In this document: positions 21,703 to 25,676 of the stretch, piece by piece
Layout of the letters: each line of letters opens with the position of its first letter
Position numbering within the stretch: the first letter of the stretch is position 1
Source: Escherichia phage vB_EcoM_3A1_SA_NWU
Sequence record: OR062524
Length of the DNA stretch: 64,000 bases
Reading direction: 5' to 3' (one strand)
Program-made: the position numbers and the translations under genes
Notes under the pieces: generated by a model
Database searches by the model: none
Told to the model about the DNA's origin: nothing
The model's input: only the letters and a program-made list of their open reading frames with translations

Positions 21703-21956
21703 TCTAGCCTCCTAAACGCGTCTCTGACGCACTTTTTATATATAAGATGATAAATCACCTTACCTAGTAAGTGAACTTGCTCTACGAGCCTCTTATGAAG
21801 CTTATGTTATAGGCTATACTATTGCTACCTGTTTAAGCAAGGTTTTTGCACACAGAAAATAATTTTAATAAAACTTTTGACTTTTGTGTTCGAAGTATGC
21901 TACCCTAGAAATCTATTAACGAGCGCAGCGAGTTAAGGTTTTAGGTTGTTGATGTA

Positions 21957-21988
21957 GTACTCTGTACTCAAGTACTGTACTCCGTACT
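21957..21988. repeat. five GTACT repeats within 32 bp
   Basis: gtactctgtactcaagtactgtactccgtact. Confidence 0.8.
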
Positions 21989-21994
21989 AGATTA

Positions 21995-22028
21995 ATAATT
22001 ATTAAATATTAATAATAAATAATTATTA
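21995..22028. repeat. AT-rich block with two copies of the 10-bp palindrome AATAATTATT
   Basis: aataattattaaatattaataataaataattatt. Confidence 0.8.
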
Positions 22029-22122
22029 GATCTAACAAACAGGTACAGTGTATCAGAACTGGTACGTACAGATCAACTTCTATCAATTAAAAATAAAATA
22101 ATAAATTATTATAAATAATACT

Positions 22123-22136
22123 TGATCTATAGATCA
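22123..22136. repeat. perfect 14-bp palindrome TGATCTATAGATCA
   Basis: Directly visible, 45 bp upstream of the first rightward gene. Confidence 0.85.
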
Positions 22137-22182
22137 GTATGAAGTACAGTACGGAACATCTTAACAAGAATGGAGGTGTGCA

Positions 22183-22368
22183 ATGATTAGCGAGAATCCG
22201 TGCAAATGGCATCATGTACCTATTAAAGATTGTATGTCTTGTAATCCACGTTCTATTTATAACATTGCATCTTATGACGATGACAATGTGTTAGACGATG
22301 ATGAAGGCTGGGAGGATTTAGATTGGACTGGTTATGAAACCAAAAAGGATAAAATTATTCCTAGTTGA
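22183..22368 (+). CDS. hypothetical protein (61 aa)
   Basis: GGAGGTG RBS. Confidence 0.5.
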   Translation: MISENPCKWHHVPIKDCMSCNPRSIYNIASYDDDNVLDDDEGWEDLDWTGYETKKDKIIPS

Positions 22369-22405
22369 CTTAAGATATCCTTCGTGCTAAACTAGAAGTG
22401 AGGAG

Positions 22406-22657
22406 ATGCCGATCACTCCCCATTTGGGGTTCGAAGGATATATGCAAAATAGTTTTTATTTTAGGTGCCGTGCTTGTAATAGGCATTTGACAAACCACTC
22501 CAGACGTGATAAAAATGGAGTCATCAAGGAATCAGACCTCTGTTCTATTTGCACAGGTTTGGCTTTTGATGATAGTCCCGAAAGGGTTTATCAGCATCAA
22601 TGTATAACAGACGTTCTCGTGTCAAACTTGGTAGAGGACGAACAACTAACAGATTAG
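22406..22657 (+). CDS. small zinc-finger protein (83 aa)
   Basis: GAGGAG RBS; CRACNRH...CSICTG. Confidence 0.5.
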   Translation: MPITPHLGFEGYMQNSFYFRCRACNRHLTNHSRRDKNGVIKESDLCSICTGLAFDDSPERVYQHQCITDVLVSNLVEDEQLTD

Positions 22658-22665
22658 GAGGAACA

Positions 22666-22914
22666 ATGTCTCTATTAGAAAAACACGTGTTTGAAGATGG
22701 TAACGGCAATGCAGTTTTTCTTTTCCATCCAGAAAAATACACATCTGAAAACAATGGTACAACTTCTATTGTAATCACTAAAGATGTTAAAGTTATTGAT
22801 TTCTTGGCTCTGATGCGAGGGATGGATCTTGAAATTAACACTTTTAACGCAGAAGCTTTGGTTGTTGCTCTTCTGGAAAAGAAAGATAGTGAAGAAGTAG
22901 CAGAATATGCTTAA
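22666..22914 (+). CDS. hypothetical protein (82 aa from ATG with AGGAGG RBS; track gives 22600..22914)
   Basis: Internal start MSLLEKHVFEDGNGN preceded by ttAGGAGGaacaATG. Confidence 0.45.
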   Translation: MSLLEKHVFEDGNGNAVFLFHPEKYTSENNGTTSIVITKDVKVIDFLALMRGMDLEINTFNAEALVVALLEKKDSEEVAEYA

Positions 22915-22921
22915 ATAACTA

Positions 22922-22951
22922 TTGACAAACGTATCCTTCATATGTTAGGAT
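22922..22951 (+). promoter_or_regulatory. possible sigma70-like promoter TTGACA-N18-TAGGAT ahead of tRNA cluster
   Basis: attgacaaacgtatccttcatatgttaggat; weak -10. Confidence 0.3.
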
Positions 22952-22964
22952 ACGTTCATCAAGT

Positions 22965-23154
22965 GTGGTAACAGGGTCGTTGACTTTTGTTAAGAGGGGC
23001 TTGCACTGCGGTAGTGTTAGAGACTACTTCTTCAGAGGTTAGCTACCAAAGAGGAAAAGGAATAGTCTCGGCTCAAGAACTTTTACGCTGAAAGTTGGGC
23101 TTGGTCTTAGAGAATGTAGCGGTTCTCTACAATCGTCAGCGTCTCTGTTACCAC
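22965..23154 (+). ncRNA. candidate structured RNA or processing leader immediately 5' of first tRNA
   Basis: 10-nt terminal pairing gtggtaacag (22965..22974) with ctgttaccac (23145..23154) encloses about 170 nt with internal hairpins; no ORF. Confidence 0.3.
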
Positions 23155-23160
23155 ATTTAT

Positions 23161-23235
23161 GGCCCTGTAGCTCAATGGGAGAGCTGTCGGCTCATAACCG
23201 ATAGGTAGCTGGATCGAAACCAGCCAGGGCCACCA
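23161..23235 (+). tRNA. tRNA-Met (anticodon CAU), CCA encoded
   Basis: Manual fold: acceptor GGCCCTG/CAGGGCC, anticodon loop CTCATAA, T-arm GCTGG-ATCGAAA-CCAGC. Confidence 0.8.
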
Positions 23236-23237
23236 AA

Positions 23238-23312
23238 GTCTTTATGGTGTAATGGATAGCACAGGAGTCTTCTAAACTCTTAGTCAAGGTTCGATTCCTT
23301 GTAAAGACACCA
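23238..23312 (+). tRNA. tRNA-Arg (anticodon UCU), CCA encoded
   Basis: Manual fold: acceptor GTCTTTA/TAAAGAC, anticodon loop CTTCTAA, T-loop TTCGATT. Confidence 0.75.
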
Positions 23313-23508
23313 GAACATTTTAACATGAATTAGCTCAAGTGATTTGAACCCACTACTGATCATGGTGGCAGAGAATGAGGCAAGTATGTCAGACATTATA
23401 AACAAAGGCCACGGTTATATTAGAAGACATAAATGCTCGAAGAGCACCGTTCGTGGAGAACGGGGGTTGGTGGAGTCACCATTCATGGTAAAATGTTTTA
23501 AAAAACTA

Positions 23509-23538
23509 TTGACAACAAACATTATTTTATGTTAGATT
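23509..23538 (+). promoter_or_regulatory. possible internal promoter TTGACA-N18-TAGATT before tRNA-Ser
   Basis: ttgacaacaaacattattttatgttagatt, about 10 nt before tRNA start. Confidence 0.35.
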
Positions 23539-23546
23539 ATAAGTAT

Positions 23547-23637
23547 GGAAGGGCAAATCGATGTGGCGACGAAAACGGTCTTGAAAACCGCCGAGCTTGA
23601 AAGAGCCTTGGGAGTTCGACTCTCCCTCCTTCCGCCA
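23547..23637 (+). tRNA. tRNA-Ser (anticodon UGA), long variable arm, CCA encoded
   Basis: Manual fold: acceptor GGAAGGG/TCCTTCC, anticodon loop CTTGAAA, T-arm GGGAG-TTCGACT-CTCCC. Confidence 0.75.
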
Positions 23638-23642
23638 GATTA

Positions 23643-23728
23643 GGTAGATTGGTGAAATGGTAGCCACGACAGTTTGCTAAACTGTAGTCGGAAACGGCGT
23701 GTAGGTTCGAGTCCTACATCTACCGCCA
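23643..23728 (+). tRNA. tRNA-Ser (anticodon GCU), long variable arm, CCA encoded
   Basis: Manual fold: acceptor GGTAGAT/ATCTACC, anticodon loop TTGCTAA, variable-arm hairpin with GAAA loop. Confidence 0.75.
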
Positions 23729-23858
23729 AGTTCTTTTTAATGTAGCTTACTTTAGCAGAGTAAATCTTCGGCAAGTGGCGGTAACCACTTTACCGATACC
23801 TCATAGTTAGTGGTGTGAACACTGGCTATTTTAAAAAGAATTTAAATATTAGTATTTA

Positions 23859-23946
23859 GGTGAGTTAATTCCGTAGGGGTAGCGGGGCAGACTGTAAATC
23901 TGTTATCATTGCGATTCGGGTGGTTCGACTCCATCACTCACCACCA
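23859..23946 (+). tRNA. tRNA-Tyr (anticodon GUA), class II, atypical 5-nt connector before D-stem
   Basis: Acceptor GGTGAGT/ACTCACC 7/7, anticodon loop CTGTAAA, T-loop TTCGACT, CCA encoded. Confidence 0.6.
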
Positions 23947-23952
23947 AATTAA

Positions 23953-24038
23953 GATGAGTTGGCTGAATGGTTTAAGCGGCGGACTGTTAATCCGTGTTCG
24001 AAAGAACAATATAGGTTCGAATCCTATACTCATCGCCA
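23953..24038 (+). tRNA. class II tRNA (long variable arm) with anticodon GUU (nominally Asn); identity uncertain
   Basis: Acceptor GATGAGT/ACTCATC, 3-bp D-stem, anticodon loop CTGTTAA, variable hairpin GTTC-GAAA-GAAC, T-arm ATAGG-TTCGAAT-CCTAT, CCA encoded. Confidence 0.55.
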
Positions 24039-24045
24039 GAATTAT

Positions 24046-24122
24046 GGACTTGTAGAGTTAAGGTAAACCCCCAGTCGCCAATAGGCTTCTGGAATTGCAG
24101 GTATCGAATCCTGCCGAGTCCC
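24046..24122 (+). ncRNA. tRNA-like element with intact acceptor pairing but no canonical anticodon arm
   Basis: GGACTTG...CGAGTCC acceptor pairing and T-arm-like GCAGG-tatcgaat-CCTGC (8-nt loop); no 5-bp/7-nt anticodon hairpin found by hand. Confidence 0.3.
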
Positions 24123-24128
24123 AGCATT

Positions 24129-24203
24129 GCTCCTATAGTATAATGGCTATTACAACGGTTTTGTAATCCGTGGATCTCTGTTCGATTCAGTGTGGGAGCA
24201 CCA
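24129..24203 (+). tRNA. tRNA-Thr (anticodon UGU), CCA encoded
   Basis: Acceptor GCTCCTA/TGGGAGC, anticodon loop TTTGTAA, T-loop TTCGATT. Confidence 0.65.
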
Positions 24204-24519
24204 ACACAACATTAAGAGCACTGTGATTGATCGTCGTATCCTGTGCACAAGGTCTGCTCGAAAGACAGTGTTCTTAGTATTGTGTTGATCACAAAAAGAG
24301 TCACCCGAAACTTGACCGGAGTAGGGTTGGATGGGGCAAAATGAGAAGCGGCTCTCCCATCGACAGCAACGAAGAATAATATTTGACTTTGGTTTTGTAT
24401 TATTTTAAGTTAGCTTACCGAACGTAGGGCTAGTCACCCAACGGGATACTCGTCACTGTCCCAATCAATAAAAGTCTTGACAACAAATAGTAAAATGTAG
24501 TATAGTAAATATATATGGC
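24204..24519 (+). ncRNA. 315-nt non-coding spacer with long-range pairing; candidate stable RNA
   Basis: aagagcactgtg ... acagtgttctt pairing, repeated agtcaccc(g/a)aac motif; no ORF or tRNA fold. Confidence 0.25.
24477..24506 (+). promoter_or_regulatory. sigma70-like promoter TTGACA-N18-TATAGT before tRNA-Gly
   Basis: cttgacaacaaatagtaaaatgtagtatagt. Confidence 0.4.
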
Positions 24520-24593
24520 GTTCTTGGTGTAGCGGTAGCATTCCGTCCTTCCAAGTCGGCGGCACGAGTTCGATCCTCGTAGAACGCTCCAAA
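24520..24593 (+). tRNA. tRNA-Gly (anticodon UCC), CCA encoded
   Basis: Acceptor GCGTTCT/AGAACGC, anticodon loop CTTCCAA, T-arm ACGAG-TTCGATC-CTCGT, discriminator U. Confidence 0.75.
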
Positions 24594-24689
24594 TTATTTA
24601 ATAAAGGGTTGCCAGAAAACTTTCTCTTTTACTCATGGTTTTCTCCTTCTCTCACACTTCTTCTGGTTGCCCTTCATTAAATGATTTAT

Positions 24690-24765
24690 TGGTTTGTAGT
24701 GTAGTCCGGTAGCACACGACACTTTGACTGTCGTAGGTTTGGTTCAAATCCAGACAGACCAGCCA
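24690..24765 (+). tRNA. tRNA-Gln (anticodon UUG), U1-A72, CCA encoded
   Basis: Acceptor TGGTTTG/CAGACCA, anticodon stem CGACA/TGTCG with loop CTTTGAC. Confidence 0.75.
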
Positions 24766-24858
24766 TATAACAAAGGTGAGTCACTACCTTAAGTGTGAAG
24801 TTAAAAACGAGGAGCCGCCGAACACTTTCTTTTGCGGTGTACCTTTAGAATGTTATCA

Positions 24859-24935
24859 CGGGACGTAGCACAGCTTGGTAGTGCGCTCGCTTTGGGAGCG
24901 AGAGGTCGAGTGTTCGAATCACTCCGTCCCGACCA
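24859..24935 (+). tRNA. tRNA-Pro (anticodon UGG), CCA encoded
   Basis: Acceptor CGGGACG/CGTCCCG, anticodon stem CTCGC/GCGAG loop TTTGGGA. Confidence 0.8.
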
Positions 24936-24941
24936 ATTAAA

Positions 24942-25015
24942 TGTTTCGTAGTTCAATGGTAGAACCCACGACTGATAATCGTGAGACACAAGTTCGATTC
25001 TTGTCGAAACAACCA
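24942..25015 (+). tRNA. tRNA-Ile (anticodon GAU), CCA encoded
   Basis: Acceptor TGTTTCG/CGAAACA, anticodon stem CACGA/TCGTG loop CTGATAA. Confidence 0.75.
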
Positions 25016-25017
25016 GT

Positions 25018-25077
25018 TTCCCGTTAGACTTACAGGATAAGAGTTCCACAGCTTATTGTGATGCTGGTTCGAATCCA
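25018..25077 (+). ncRNA. tRNA-like element (good acceptor and T-arm, degenerate anticodon arm)
   Basis: TTCCCGT...ACGGGAT pairing, T-arm GCTGG-TTCGAAT-CCAGC, no canonical anticodon hairpin. Confidence 0.3.
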
Positions 25078-25094
25078 GCACGGGATACATAATA

Positions 25095-25173
25095 GCGGGA
25101 TAGAGGAGTCTGGTCGTCCTCGCCAGTTTCATATGCTGGAGATCATCGGTTCAAATCCGATTCCCGCCTCCAA
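25095..25173 (+). tRNA. tRNA with CAU anticodon (second Met-type or lysidine-Ile), A1/C72 mismatch, CCA encoded
   Basis: Acceptor AGCGGGA/TCCCGCC, anticodon stem CCAGT/GCTGG loop TTCATAT. Confidence 0.65.
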
Positions 25174-25287
25174 ATATCGCTTGCCAGCGGTATCTTTGAA
25201 GACCTTGCCTGGTTCCTTCTAAGATGGAGGGGTGCGACTCCTTAACGCACAATTATAATAAAGCATTTCAACTTAACAGTATTTACT

Positions 25288-25312
25288 AGCCTCCTTATTG
25301 GAGGCTTTTTGC
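25288..25312 (+). terminator. intrinsic terminator closing the tRNA cluster
   Basis: agcctccttattggaggcttttt. Confidence 0.7.
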
Positions 25313-25329
25313 TATCTATTGAATAAAAC

Positions 25330-25358
25330 TTGACTTATTATTTTTTATATGTTAAGAT
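25330..25358 (+). promoter_or_regulatory. sigma70-like promoter TTGACT-N17-TAAGAT
   Basis: cttgacttattattttttatatgttaagat, followed by AGGAGG RBS. Confidence 0.5.
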
Positions 25359-25379
25359 AAAGTTTAGGAGGATTTTATT

Positions 25380-25676
25380 ATGCCTAAACTAAAACGTGGT
25401 CGTGGAAGACCAACAGCCGAAATGCAACAGATCTACGCAATGGATGCGGCGCAAGCAAGTGTAAAAGAATTATTTGCAGAGCATTATTTAGAAGCTATGC
25501 GATATATTGTTGAACTTGTTAATGATAAGGATGCAGCAAAACCTCTCCGCTTCCAAGCAGCTAAAGCTATTAAAGAGCAAGTAGAAGAATGGTTAGAAGA
25601 ACATTATGAAGCTATGGAAGAAGAAACTCCTGCCGTGCAGAATACAGATGACGTTCCTAAAAAGATCGTAATCTAA
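25380..25676 (+). CDS. small DNA-binding-like protein (98 aa), possible small terminase or regulator
   Basis: N-terminal KRGRGRP AT-hook-like motif; two hairpins downstream. Confidence 0.5.
   Translation: MPKLKRGRGRPTAEMQQIYAMDAAQASVKELFAEHYLEAMRYIVELVNDKDAAKPLRFQAAKAIKEQVEEWLEEHYEAMEEETPAVQNTDDVPKKIVI

Follow-up and report, generated by a model that had tools for sequence, protein, structure and literature searches.

Why does this phage carry so many tRNA genes, and what lies in the long spacers between them? The question concerns a cluster in Escherichia phage vB_EcoM_3A1_SA_NWU (sequence record OR062524), of which a stretch of 64,000 nucleotides, here called the window, was analysed. A first-pass annotation had folded twelve tRNAs in the cluster by hand. 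It described tight groups of genes separated by spacers of 100-300 nt that carry TTGACA-type promoter candidates, and it suggested that the set may compensate for codon-usage differences between phage and host.

The cluster, about 2.4 kb on the + strand, is an already annotated tRNA operon with 12 genes, and the phage is a phAPEC8-like (Phapecoctavirus) coliphage. The tRNA region is 100% identical to that of Escherichia phages AV125 and ESCO13 (Phapecoctavirus), and the same tRNAs are annotated there; thus the tRNA cluster itself is already known. The twelve hand-folded tRNAs are real, and their anticodons had been listed exactly right. ARAGORN accepted ten of the models rather than rejecting most of them (23161-25172, all on the + strand). 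Rfam RF00005 found eleven tRNAs above the gathering score, the addition being tRNA-Tyr(GUA) (23859-23943, 39 bits). The remaining gene, tRNA-Ser(UGA), was matched by the tRNA-Sec model with 35.7 bits (E=1e-4) against a gathering score of 47. It is annotated as "tRNA-Ser-TGA; detected by tRNAscan-SE" in ASO2A, a 97.7%-identical phage, and every related lineage has a Ser-UGA at this position.

The first gene (23161-23235; 64.5 bits in Rfam, as for the scores below) has the anticodon CAU and is probably a tRNA-Ile2, which carries lysidine and reads AUA: tRNAscan-SE calls it Ile-CAT in ASO2A, and it resembles T5 tRNA-Ile2(CAU). It is followed by tRNA-Arg(UCU) (23238-23312; 66.3 bits) and by two class II genes, tRNA-Ser(UGA) (23547-23637) and tRNA-Ser(GCU) (23643-23728; 56 bits). 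The former has a non-canonical D region (C8, extra bases) and differs in sequence type from the same-position Ser-UGA of other genera. The tRNA-Tyr(GUA) gene (23859-23946) belongs to a type common to T4-like and T5-like coliphages; it aligns with the Tyr genes of RB27 and of T5-like phages. A class II tRNA with the anticodon GUU (23953-24038; 62.1 bits), tRNA-Thr(UGU) (24129-24203; 55.6 bits), tRNA-Gly(UCC) (24518-24591; 56.1 bits), tRNA-Gln(UUG) (24690-24765; 54.9 bits), tRNA-Pro(UGG) (24859-24935; 67.1 bits) and tRNA-Ile(GAU) (24942-25015; 72.2 bits) come next. The last gene (25094-25172; 50 bits) is a second CAU tRNA, of the type annotated as initiator tRNA-fMet in T5. Aligned with T5 tRNA-fMet, it shows an A1xC72 mismatch, a GCGGG acceptor and a 5-bp D stem; as read from the sequence, its anticodon stem lacks the three G:C pairs.

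CCA is encoded in all twelve genes, not just in most of them as had been stated. The genes do form tight groups, namely four pairs with partners 2-6 nt apart (Ile2-Arg, Ser-Ser, Tyr-Asn and Pro-Ile), while Thr, Gly, Gln and the final CAU tRNA stand alone. The proposed spacer range was less accurate: the internal spacers 1 to 7 measure 234, 130, 90, 314, 98, 93 and 78 nt, i.e., four of seven are shorter than 100 nt. The leader is 208 nt long.

Promoters are not the main content of these spacers. A sigma-70 scan identified three TTGACA-type candidates here on the + strand, the first two of which were also found by motif count. P1 (22922-22951; TTGACA-18-TAGGAT with a TGn extended -10) lies upstream of the cluster, directly after the stop codon of the upstream ORF, and its -35 and -10 boxes are kept in a divergent relative, L007. 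P2 (23509-23538; TTGACA-N15-TGT-TAGATT) precedes tRNA-Ser(UGA), and TTGACA with a TGTTAGATT/TGATAGAGT -10 box is kept there in L007, Justusliebigvirus and FKP3. P3 (24477-24506; TTGACA-18-TATAGT) matches 11 of 12 positions; TTGACA and TA(T/G/A)AGT are found at fixed spacing 5' of tRNA-Gly in seven of eight lineages. The boxes of P2 and P3 thus keep their position in other genera while the flanks diverge. The generic sigma-70 scan showed no enrichment over shuffles (10 found, 11.2 expected); the pattern TTGACW-N13-16-TGnTAnnnT occurs 11 times in the window and 0.5 times in shuffles. Promoters in the spacers were therefore rightly suspected for two internal spacers (at 23509 and 24477), but the other five have none. 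An intrinsic terminator (25288-25312, + strand) with a 7-bp stem, five G:C pairs and a U tract ends the operon. It was found by a terminator scan and coincides with a terminator annotated in ASO2A; other + strand matches in the region lie inside tRNA genes, and this is the sole convincing one.

The class II GUU tRNA raises the question of which amino acid it carries. It has G73 and a long variable arm consisting of a 4-bp stem capped by GAAA. E. coli SerRS uses mainly these two features, G73 and a long variable arm. The arm is built like that of the adjoining phage tRNA-Ser(GCU), and GCU differs from GUU by one base. The gene could thus have arisen from tRNA-Ser(GCU) by C35U and insert serine at AAY codons, as deliberate mistranslation or recoding. 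We regard this as very unlikely. The anticodon arm with its surrounding bases (21 nt) is identical to E. coli asnT and matches no Ser tRNA, and the A2:U71 pair differs from G2:C71 of E. coli tRNA-Ser. GUU together with G73 makes up the full known identity set of E. coli AsnRS (PMC9976931). Homologues of 82-87 nt occur in several other phage groups, and the conservation of the type in hundreds of phages is hard to square with proteome-wide Asn-to-Ser errors. By its sequence, the gene belongs to a widespread phage type of tRNA-Asn, and asparagine would be its amino acid.

Codon usage supports compensation by the tRNA set. The comparison covered 16,446 codons of the phage and 10,533 of E. coli K-12, the host reference being a 50-kb sample, half of which is ribosomal-protein genes. 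Enrichment in the phage is highest for ATA, AGA, ACA, AGG, GGA, TAT, AGT, CTA, TTA and AAT, and against this E. coli sample eight of these ten codons are read by the twelve tRNAs (hypergeometric P=0.004). The most enriched codon, AUA, would be read by the first CAU tRNA; AGA and AGG are enriched for tRNA-Arg(UCU), GGA for tRNA-Gly(UCC) and ACA (3-8 times) for tRNA-Thr(UGU). As Watson-Crick codons, ATA, AGA, ACA and GGA are 2.5-3.4 times as frequent as in ordinary E. coli genes and 6-26 times as frequent as in ribosomal-protein genes. The Watson-Crick codons of Ser-GCU, Ile-GAU and Met are not enriched (ratios 0.5-1.3), but AGT, which Ser-GCU reads by wobble, is. For the enriched Leu codons CTA and TTA there is no phage tRNA here; a sister genus has Leu-UAA and Leu-UAG.

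However, E. coli defence nucleases are documented to attack the host counterparts of three of the tRNAs, Tyr, Asn(GUU) and Thr(UGU). PARIS AriB cuts host Lys(UUU), Thr(UGU) and Asn(GUU) tRNAs, and the T5 copies rescue infection (10.1101/2025.02.04.636281). Retron-Eco7 and Septu (PtuAB) cut host tRNA-Tyr and are neutralised by T5-type tRNA-Tyr (PMC13096335). Tyr-GUA, Asn-GUU and Thr-UGU, shared with these T5 and T6 examples, are adjacent here, and Lys-Tyr-Asn-Thr is contiguous in Justusliebigvirus. By analogy, an anti-defence role of the Tyr-Asn-Thr block seems as live as codon compensation, and codon usage cannot separate the two for these genes.

The whole cluster might even serve mainly against defence, supplying nuclease-resistant or surplus copies against PARIS AriB, retron-Eco7/Septu PtuAB and anticodon nucleases, with the codon match as a by-product of AT-richness. 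A general model of this kind has been proposed (PMC10264068). The Tyr gene belongs to the T5/T6 sequence type, whose matches are 77-92% identical across unrelated T-even and T5-like phages, suggesting horizontal spread under selection. Phage Thr(UGU) has C41, adjoining the AriB cut site, where the host cleavage site has A41 (10.1101/2025.02.04.636281), and the final CAU tRNA resembles an initiator tRNA whose anticodon stem is altered. However, nine of the twelve tRNAs have no documented nuclease acting on the host counterpart, and the strongest codon enrichments (AUA, AGA, GGA) belong to tRNAs that are not known targets. The anticodon arm of the Asn gene is identical to that of the host, so the cleavage site has no change that could protect it from AriB; any resistance would come via the tRNA body only. 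The T5 tRNA-Asn that helped to rescue cells from PARIS toxicity is a class I variant and therefore says nothing on the class II type. Lys(UUU), the main PARIS target and a member of the T5 anti-PARIS set, is absent from the phage. Septu also cleaves T6 tRNA-Tyr (PMC13096335), so the T6 copy acts by dosage and not by resistance. We consider a mainly anti-defence cluster possible but doubtful, and retain codon supply with a probable second role for the Tyr-Asn-Thr block.

What, then, do the spacers contain? Rather than carrying promoters, most of them are conserved structured RNAs that have gone unannotated. The z-scores of eight of nine non-tRNA segments range from -2.3 to -5.5, and three RNA families (spacer 2, spacer 5 and a 3' element) show covariation. 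All elements described below are on the + strand. The 5' leader (22961-23158) folds with an imperfect closing duplex of about 23 bp (GUGUGGUAACAGGG.../...CUCUGUUACCACA) and a minimum free energy of -76.8 kcal/mol (z=-5.45; 0 of 200 shuffles fold equally well). It is limited to Phapecoctavirus-like genomes, and its fold is preserved with compensatory changes in L007 at 80% identity. Spacer 1 (23313-23498; z=-4.0) is a domain with a 10+7-bp closing stem that begins immediately 3' of the tRNA-Arg CCA; its structure is also preserved in L007.

Spacer 2 (23729-23842; z=-3.9) is a four-way-junction RNA with a 12-bp closing stem and three hairpins. In T5-like and Certrevirus phages it lies immediately 5' of tRNA-Tyr. 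In three phage groups, 15 distinct sequences give 97.5% paired cells and four covarying pairs, and 0 of 500 shuffles match the score. We found it in 177 phage records, where it is almost never annotated. The 3' element (25173-25252) comprises a hairpin, a long bulged hairpin with the conserved loop GCCUR and an H-type pseudoknot (25226-25250; S1 GGAG/CUCC, S2 GUGCG/CGCAC). Both pseudoknot helices are 100% paired in 10 distinct sequences, with three covarying pairs (up to four pair types) and 0 of 500 shuffles matching the score. The element occurs, 80-100% identical, in 133 phage records, again almost never annotated, and has no match in Rfam. Spacer 5 (24592-24686; z=-5.16) is a long hairpin with a stem of about 24-26 bp and the CU-rich loop UUUCUCUUUU(C)GCUCAUGGUUUUCUCCUUC, found in all lineages. 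Six distinct sequences from outside the window give 99.4% paired cells and six covarying pairs, and 0 of 500 shuffles match the score. The structured spacer RNAs had been overlooked in the first-pass annotation.

The other spacers are less uniform. Spacer 3 (24046-24121; z=-2.75) is a tRNA-like RNA homologous to T5 "RNA3" (71% identity over 66 nt, E=5e-5). It has a 7-bp acceptor-like stem, a T arm and a long hairpin; a tetraloop replaces the anticodon loop, and there is no CCA. Spacer 4 begins with a folded hairpin of about 20 bp (24204-24285) immediately 3' of the tRNA-Thr CCA. Its 3' part is a two-hairpin module (24418-24464) just 5' of P3, kept in L007, L008, L012, L013 and L014 with a change from GGGA/UCCC to GAGA/UCUC. 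Spacer 7 (25016-25088; z=-3.2) is a second tRNA-like element with an acceptor-like stem and a canonical T arm (GCUGG-UUCGAAU-CCAGC), and without a D arm, a 7-nt anticodon loop or CCA; no parent was detectable among the tRNAs of relatives. Spacer 6 (24766-24858) shows no significant structure (z=0.0) and is elsewhere found solely in L007. It may be an insertion scar, because at its site VEcB has an HNH endonuclease gene and Gln and Pro are adjacent in L009.

Spacer 6 thus fits a reading of the spacers as debris, in which decayed tRNA genes, homing-endonuclease scars and leftover intergenic DNA are retained as harmless. HNH genes and other insertions are frequent in such clusters. Relatives have 15-19 tRNAs in unchanged order, which implies gene loss in this lineage, and spacers 3 and 7 resemble tRNAs minus the anticodon loop and CCA. 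Where the conserved families are concerned, the debris reading is already disfavoured. Three of them retain pairing via compensatory changes across genera and even phage families, and in spacer 5 the stem is fully variable but the loop invariant. The helices of spacer 3 are preserved between genera, with compensatory changes against Justusliebigvirus in the acceptor, T and central stems, and its T5 homologue is annotated as RNA. No spacer is homologous to the extra tRNAs or spacer ORFs of relatives. An origin of spacer 2 as a tRNA-Lys remnant was ruled out, because both coexist in Justusliebigvirus. Taken over all spacers, debris is an unlikely explanation.

It is extremely improbable that the spacers encode small proteins. 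The records of ETEC-TG and EP57 do place six to eight hypothetical CDSs in the region, and ORFs of 30-63 aa are present. The loop of spacer 5 is exactly antisense to an ideal ribosome-binding site with AUG, and the minus strand there reads a perfect AAGGAG-N7-ATG. But the longest spacer ORF (23344-23535), the only long one at spacer 1, is disrupted by two 1-nt indels in L007. The mini-ORF of spacer 5 varies in frame and length by lineage (MSKRESFLATLY, MSEKRKFSNIPV, MSKKRNFL), and no minus-strand promoter is predicted near it. A tblastn search with the VEcB spacer proteins gave no match, and conservation takes the form of covariation in paired helices rather than third-codon variation.

The structured-RNA reading has precedents. 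By analogy, the T5 tRNA region (NC_005859.1, roughly 28-41.6 kb, RefSeq) is the closest one. It likewise has many co-oriented tRNA genes in small groups, with several annotated internal promoters, and eight intervening RNAs described as "stable RNA with unknown functions" or "tRNA-like" (RNAI, RNAIII, RNAIV, RNA1, RNA2, RNA2H, RNA3 and RNAX). T5 RNA3 adjoins tRNA-Asn, as does spacer 3, and the two phages share the sequence types of their Tyr, Ile2 and fMet-like tRNAs. The differences are that T5 has about 24 tRNAs among many small ORFs and HNH genes, against 12 tRNAs and no convincing ORFs in the window's cluster; that spacer 2, spacer 5 and the 3' element are absent from T5 (nhmmer); and that T5 tRNA-Asn belongs to class I, its anticodon stem being altered. 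Spacer 2 is found in other T5-like phages (Lindwurm, HildyBeyeler, EH7), and at least Lindwurm has the class II Asn. T4-type clusters overlap largely in anticodons (Gln-UUG, Gly-UCC, Pro-UGG, Ser-UGA, Thr-UGU, Arg-UCU and Ile/Met-CAU, for rare codons ending in A), with Tyr and Asn in RB27, where tRNA-Asn is class I (75 nt). At their 3' end are two unexplained stable RNAs, rnaC and rnaD (species 1 and 2 RNAs). The former has a tRNA-like T arm and closing stem, and neither has sequence similarity to any spacer here. Unlike here, T4-type genes are 1-10 nt apart with no annotated internal promoters.

Other Stephanstirmvirinae (Justusliebigvirus VEcB and Klebsiella phages phi1_175008, FKP3 and 05F01) share gene order, P2, P3, the spacer 5 hairpin and the 3' element. 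Spacer 2 occurs in Justusliebigvirus and 05F01 as well, spacer 3 in Justusliebigvirus and the class II Asn in all that were compared. Their extra tRNAs are Lys-UUU, Leu-UAA, Leu-UAG, Phe, Asp, Glu, Arg-ACG, Ala, Val and Cys. At the positions of Tyr and Ser-UGA they have other sequence types, which looks like cassette replacement. The lineage of the window has the smallest tRNA set, together with a lineage-specific leader and spacers 6 and 7.

The explanation that we find probable as a whole combines a tRNA operon, codon supply, a defence role of the block and spacers that act as processing modules. Host sigma-70 RNA polymerase would start at 22922, 23509 and 24477. There is no terminator between the three promoters, so transcripts from the upstream ones would run to the single terminator at 25288, and such read-through would make transcription of the downstream tRNAs additive. 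The precursor would be cut by host enzymes, RNase P at the 5' ends and endo- and exonucleases at the 3' ends; since CCA is encoded in every gene, its addition would be unnecessary. Most spacers are self-contained domains with a terminal duplex of 12-26 bp that begins at the base after the upstream CCA. We infer that they are folding insulators and processing modules, which would prevent misfolding of neighbouring tRNAs and provide duplexes for cleavage. Some of them, at least, probably end up as stable small RNAs, like those of T5 and rnaC/rnaD of RB27. The invariant loops in spacer 5 and in the 3' element point to roles that go beyond passive processing. For the phage, the main function of the tRNAs would be to raise a supply that its 39% G+C genome needs more than a 50% G+C host provides, for AUA, AGA/AGG, ACA, GGA, UCA, CAA and CCA and for the Tyr, Asn and Ser AGY boxes. 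A probable second role of the Tyr-Asn-Thr(UGU) block would be to replace host tRNAs destroyed by the defence nucleases of E. coli.

The tRNA cluster is of an already known kind. The segment 22900-25400 is 100% identical to the Phapecoctavirus phages AV125 and ESCO13 and to several other Escherichia phages. About 150 further records match it at 95-99% identity, and all of them belong to Phapecoctavirus (Stephanstirmvirinae), i.e., to phAPEC8-like coliphages with genomes of about 150 kb. Between 10 and 12 tRNAs are already annotated at this region in the records of identical or nearly identical phages, and published genome notes for Phapecoctavirus report 10-11 tRNAs; thus the tRNA cluster should be regarded as known. 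Two records, “Campylobacter phage” B15 and A135, are labelled as phages of C. jejuni, and their sequences match this coliphage region at 88-99.9% identity, probably owing to host mislabelling or contamination.

The first-pass annotation, which described 12 hand-folded tRNAs, is confirmed as an observation and partly supported in its interpretation. A gene was accepted as a tRNA if its score with the Rfam covariance model RF00005 was at least the gathering score (29 bits) or if its cloverleaf was accepted by a tRNA finder. ARAGORN accepted 10 of the 12 cloverleafs. RF00005 recognized 11 of them at 39-72 bits, all above the gathering score, and added Tyr-GUA to the ARAGORN set. The remaining gene, Ser-UGA (23547-23637), was not called by ARAGORN, and its best Rfam match is tRNA-Sec (35.7 bits versus a gathering score of 47). 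Its counterpart in the record of ASO2A, a 97.7%-identical phage, is called by tRNAscan-SE, and Ser-UGA is present at the same cluster position in every related lineage. The anticodons of all 12 tRNAs are those listed originally, and the encoded CCA, at first ascribed to most of the genes, is found in all 12. The first CAU tRNA is typed as Ile2 by tRNAscan-SE in ASO2A and resembles tRNA-Ile2 of T5.

The second CAU tRNA (25094-25172) has an initiator-like acceptor (GCGGG) and T arm and matches in type the gene designated tRNA-fMet in the T5 annotation. Position 1:72 is unpaired, with A1 opposite C72. The anticodon stem (CCAGU/GCUGG) lacks the three consecutive G:C pairs at its bottom that are diagnostic of initiators: the pairs 29-41, 30-40, and 31-39 are A-U, G-C, and U-G.

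Several observations concern the tRNA genes of related phages. Ser(UGA) at 23547-23637 and Tyr at 23859-23946 were compared with five related loci (L003, the divergent relative L007, L008, L012, and L014); at these fixed positions clearly different sequence types occur in different lineages, which looks like the result of cassette replacement. The tRNA-Tyr of the window is nearer in type to its counterparts in T4-like and T5-like phages than to the one in the sister genus. Some relatives carry a tRNA-Glu(UUC) of 86-89 nt between Gly and Gln (L008 2502-2590, L012 2937-3025, L013 2363-2451, and L006 870-957). This length well exceeds that of an ordinary class I tRNA-Glu, and the gene is possibly a second class II-like tRNA of this phage group outside Ser, Leu, and Tyr. 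In Klebsiella phage 05F01 the spacer from Asn to Gln (L014 1137-1355) includes an acceptor/T-arm minihelix of about 45 nt with a terminal CCA, together with a second tRNA-like element that terminates in GCCA; neither was called by ARAGORN in this spacer. The tRNA cluster of Klebsiella phage ZCKP1 (38482-41696) has an insertion of about 700 bp, for which the annotation gives an antitoxin-like HTH gene of the XRE family. HNH endonuclease genes sit inside the tRNA clusters of the Justusliebigvirus phage VEcB and of the Klebsiella phage FKP3.

Eight of the genes form four tight pairs with 2-6 nt between partners, and the four further genes are solitary. The seven internal spacers are 234, 130, 90, 314, 98, 93, and 78 nt long, and the leader before the first tRNA gene is 208 nt. 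Sigma-70-like sites were found for the operon at 22922 (P1), 23509 (P2), and 24477 (P3); a fourth one, at 25330, was assigned to the next gene. A generic sigma-70 scan gave no enrichment over shuffled sequence. The motif TTGACW-N13-16-TGnTAnnnT occurs 11 times in the window versus 0.5 expected, and five of its eight copies on the + strand fall within the 3.5 kb of 21877-25330. Two of these five copies, at 21877 and 22365, precede small upstream ORFs. For P2 and P3, located before Ser-UGA and Gly, other genera retain both the sequence of the -35 and -10 boxes and the distance between them, whereas the flanks diverge. The spacers had been described as carriers of promoter candidates; this holds for two of the seven internal spacers and fails for the other five. 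The single convincing terminator on the + strand is at 25288, and therefore transcripts from P1 and P2 should run through the whole operon. The predicted arrangement would produce three nested transcripts with one shared terminator. At the sequence level, promoters thus placed inside a co-oriented tRNA cluster resemble those of a T5-type operon.

Most of the non-tRNA segments are predicted to fold more stably than their shuffles. The z-scores are -5.45 for the leader, -4.0, -3.9, -2.75, and -2.5 for spacers 1 to 4, -5.16 for spacer 5, -3.2 for spacer 7, and -2.3 for the element that follows the last tRNA (3' element), with 0 for spacer 6. The leader is enclosed by a duplex of about 23 bp. In spacers 1, 2, 4, and 5 the duplex begins at the base following the upstream CCA and comprises about 17, 12, 20, and 24-26 bp, respectively. 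Covariation was found in three families, namely spacer 2, spacer 5, and the 3' element.

Several other readings of the spacers were considered and rejected. Decay of the extra tRNAs of relatives (Lys, Glu, Leu, Phe, and the 76-nt Met) would leave homology to these genes, and blastn searches and alignments detected none; in particular, spacer 2 is not a remnant of tRNA-Lys, as the two occur together in Justusliebigvirus. A tblastn search for remnants of the ORFs found in the spacers of VEcB (gp248, gp249, and HNH) gave no match. A protein-coding nature was rejected because the reading frames are broken or unconserved. Comparison with rnaC/rnaD of RB27, a T4-like phage, showed no homology, and Rfam, searched with 22700-25500 at E<=10, returned tRNA matches and noise only.

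Spacer 2 (23729-23842) folds into a four-way junction. In an alignment of 15 distinct sequences 97.5% of cells are paired and four pairs covary; one of these takes the forms C-G, A-U, G-C, and U-G. We found this RNA in 177 phage records, where it is almost never annotated. Its counterparts lie, for example, at 1502-1617 of the related locus L005 and at 301-417 of L037-L039 and L044. The RNA is common to Stephanstirmvirinae, T5-like Demerecviridae, and a Certrevirus (Vequintavirinae), and it is always located close upstream of tRNA-Tyr; it is the immediate 5' neighbour of this gene in T5-like phages as well as Cronobacter phage PBES 02. Such a distribution suggests that the RNA and tRNA-Tyr travel as a single module.

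Spacer 5 (24592-24686) is a hairpin with a stem of 24-26 bp, in which 99.4% of cells are paired and six pairs covary. The sequence of the stem differs in each lineage yet stays paired, whereas the CU-rich loop of 30 nt is invariant. The loop is a perfect antisense of GAAGGAGAAAACCAUGAG, which consists of a Shine-Dalgarno sequence and a start codon (AAGGAG-N7-AUG); the frame of a mini-ORF on the minus strand is not conserved. Spacer 5 could be an anti-RBS small RNA or a sponge. A search of the 64-kb window for targets of the loop (an 18-mer with at most 3 mismatches) matched its own antisense only, and a duplex-energy scan of the same window gave no standout (the best non-self value is -27 kcal/mol versus -47 kcal/mol for self).

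Spacers 3 and 7 are tRNA-like, each combining an acceptor-like stem with a T arm but lacking an anticodon loop and CCA. The helices of spacer 3 are kept in Justusliebigvirus by compensatory changes. Spacer 3 is homologous to RNA3 of T5, with 71% identity; the latter is annotated as a “putative tRNA-like RNA” and is located next to the T5 tRNA-Asn. The tRNA region of T5 in RefSeq is the closest precedent for the cluster as a whole. Annotated in it are internal promoters as well as eight RNAs, stable or tRNA-like, to which no function is assigned, and structured or tRNA-like non-tRNA RNAs between tRNA genes, as in T5- and T4-type operons, are also present here. The T4-type cluster, which ends in rnaC/rnaD, is a looser parallel, since these RNAs have no sequence similarity to the spacers of the window.

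These structures allow a tentative scheme of precursor maturation. The structured spacers would fold independently and so keep the neighbouring tRNAs from mispairing. Double-stranded stems could serve as RNase III sites. By the criterion of about two turns (at least 20 bp) of mostly uninterrupted dsRNA, the leader (about 23 bp), spacer 4 (about 20 bp), and spacer 5 (24-26 bp) are long enough, and spacer 1 (17 bp) and spacer 2 (12 bp) are too short. Host RNases would process the precursor, with the tRNA-like elements possibly cut in the same way as tRNAs, and some spacers may be released as stable RNAs. Less probably, the elements that lack anticodons would act as decoys or sponges that capture nucleases or tRNA-binding enzymes.

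The 3' element (25173-25252) occupies 80 nt between the last tRNA and the terminator and includes a covarying H-type pseudoknot at 25226-25250. Across ten distinct sequences, pairing is 100% in both helices of the pseudoknot, and three of the pairs covary. At the top of hairpin 2 (pair 36-46) two groups of sequences pair in different registers, and we claim no covariation there. The element is contained in 133 records, almost never annotated, and has no Rfam match. Pattern scans of IMG/VR and metagenomes for further members of the family returned only Stephanstirmvirinae-like contigs and four false positives. Part of the element (CUCCUUAAC / CUCUUAAC) may resemble a boxA sequence. In 05F01 a protein gene separates the element from the tRNAs, and the element is still upstream of the homologue of the following gene (25380 in the window). 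Its role may therefore concern that junction and not the 3' ends of tRNAs. The invariant loops of the 3' element and of spacer 5 hint at sequence-specific functions.

The tRNA with the GUU anticodon scores 62 bits as a tRNA. We treat a tRNA as class II if its variable region is longer than 10 nt and folds into its own stem-loop; here this region is 15 nt, with a GUUC/GAAC stem and a GAAA loop. In eight phage homologues the variable arm always has a stem of 3-4 bp, for which six different complementary sequences are observed, and a GAAA or GAGA loop. Such homologues, 82-87 nt long, were found in all Stephanstirmvirinae, many T5-like phages, Jiaodavirus (T4-like Klebsiella phages), a Proteus Novosibvirus, and a 278-kb Pseudomonas phage, and a total of 757 phage records match this tRNA. 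A host origin was rejected, as none of 5,426 E. coli genomes carries it. T5 itself has a class I tRNA-Asn with a changed anticodon stem, whereas the tRNA of the window is of class II.

The long variable arm and G73 are features of serine tRNAs too, so that a serine-accepting, mistranslating tRNA has to be weighed. The acceptor pair G2:C71 belongs to the SerRS identity. It is present in the class II copies of T5-like phages, KPV15, and Stubb, and is A2:U71 in those of the window, VEcB, and Klebsiella phages. E. coli asnT has the same 21 nt around the anticodon as the window copy, the discriminator of which is G73, and G34, U35, U36, and G73 are present and invariant among all class II homologues. 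The known identity set of E. coli AsnRS is the anticodon and G73 (PMC9976931). We give the serine reading a low probability and, from these sequence features, interpret the gene as a tRNA-Asn whose body is specific to phages. In the full-text literature searched we found no description of a class II tRNA-Asn in phages; older literature on T5 is outside that scope.

The tRNA set had been proposed to compensate for differences in codon usage. Phage usage was determined from 55 non-overlapping ORFs of the window of at least 100 aa (16,446 codons), and host usage from 49 annotated E. coli K-12 genes (10,533 codons), which were divided into ordinary genes and those of ribosomal proteins and elongation factors. 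The ten codons most enriched in the phage are ATA, AGA, ACA, AGG, GGA, TAT, AGT, CTA, TTA, and AAT. Eight of them are decoded by the 12 tRNAs (hypergeometric P=0.004, with a small host sample), which supports compensation. The other two are Leu codons without a tRNA in the window, and the sister genus has both Leu-UAA and Leu-UAG tRNAs. No enrichment in the phage is seen for the codons that Ser-GCU, Ile-GAU, and Met read by Watson-Crick pairing.

Phage tRNAs can also counteract immunity that targets tRNAs. AriB of the PARIS system attacks three E. coli tRNAs, Lys(UUU), Thr(UGU), and Asn(GUU), with a cut between nucleotides 40 and 41, and the T5 copies of the Lys, Thr, and Asn tRNAs jointly rescue infection (10.1101/2025.02.04.636281). 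The variable loop of host tRNA-Tyr is cut by retron-Eco7 and Septu, and T5 tRNA-Tyr neutralises this (PMC13096335). According to the van den Berg model and the PARIS and retron-Eco7 cases, evasion is indicated by a phage-encoded isoacceptor of a cleaved tRNA and by substitutions near the cleavage site. The phage encodes three such isoacceptors, Tyr-GUA, Asn-GUU, and Thr-UGU; Lys-UUU is absent. Tyr, Asn, and Thr(UGU) adjoin in the window, and the corresponding block of Justusliebigvirus is Lys-Tyr-Asn-Thr. The tRNA-Tyr is of a type common to T4-like and T5-like phages, with a variable arm of the T5 type. The Thr tRNA has C41 versus A41 in the host, the latter taken from the description of PARIS (10.1101/2025.02.04.636281). 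The Asn tRNA has no change near the AriB cleavage site, and its anticodon arm is identical to that of asnT. While it retains this arm together with the AsnRS identity set, its GNRA-capped variable arm beside the 40/41 cut might, with low probability, shield it from nucleases that cleave the stem, AriB among them. Codon supply and defence evasion are not mutually exclusive roles, and codon counts cannot tell them apart because TAT, AAT, and ACA are among the phage-enriched codons as well.

The analysis shows the genes, the regulatory sequences with their conservation, the codon match, and the RNA structures. The cluster is an ordinary one, annotated in dozens of Phapecoctavirus genomes and with an architecture described for T5; in itself it is nothing new. 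As far as these searches show, neither the families of spacer RNAs nor the class II Asn have been described, although they are of known kinds, and the moderate interest of the region is confined to these unannotated structured RNAs and this tRNA. It seems to us unlikely that the spacers make up a horizontally mobile toolkit of small RNAs (spacer 2, the spacer 5 hairpin, the tRNA-like elements, and the 3' element) with functions of their own and that the class II Asn is a new evasion strategy. The window and its relatives have three covarying unannotated RNA families, one of which spans three phage groups, and the phage-specific class II tRNA-Asn occurs in hundreds of genomes. These RNAs bear on the maturation of phage tRNAs and on their protection from tRNA-targeting immunity.
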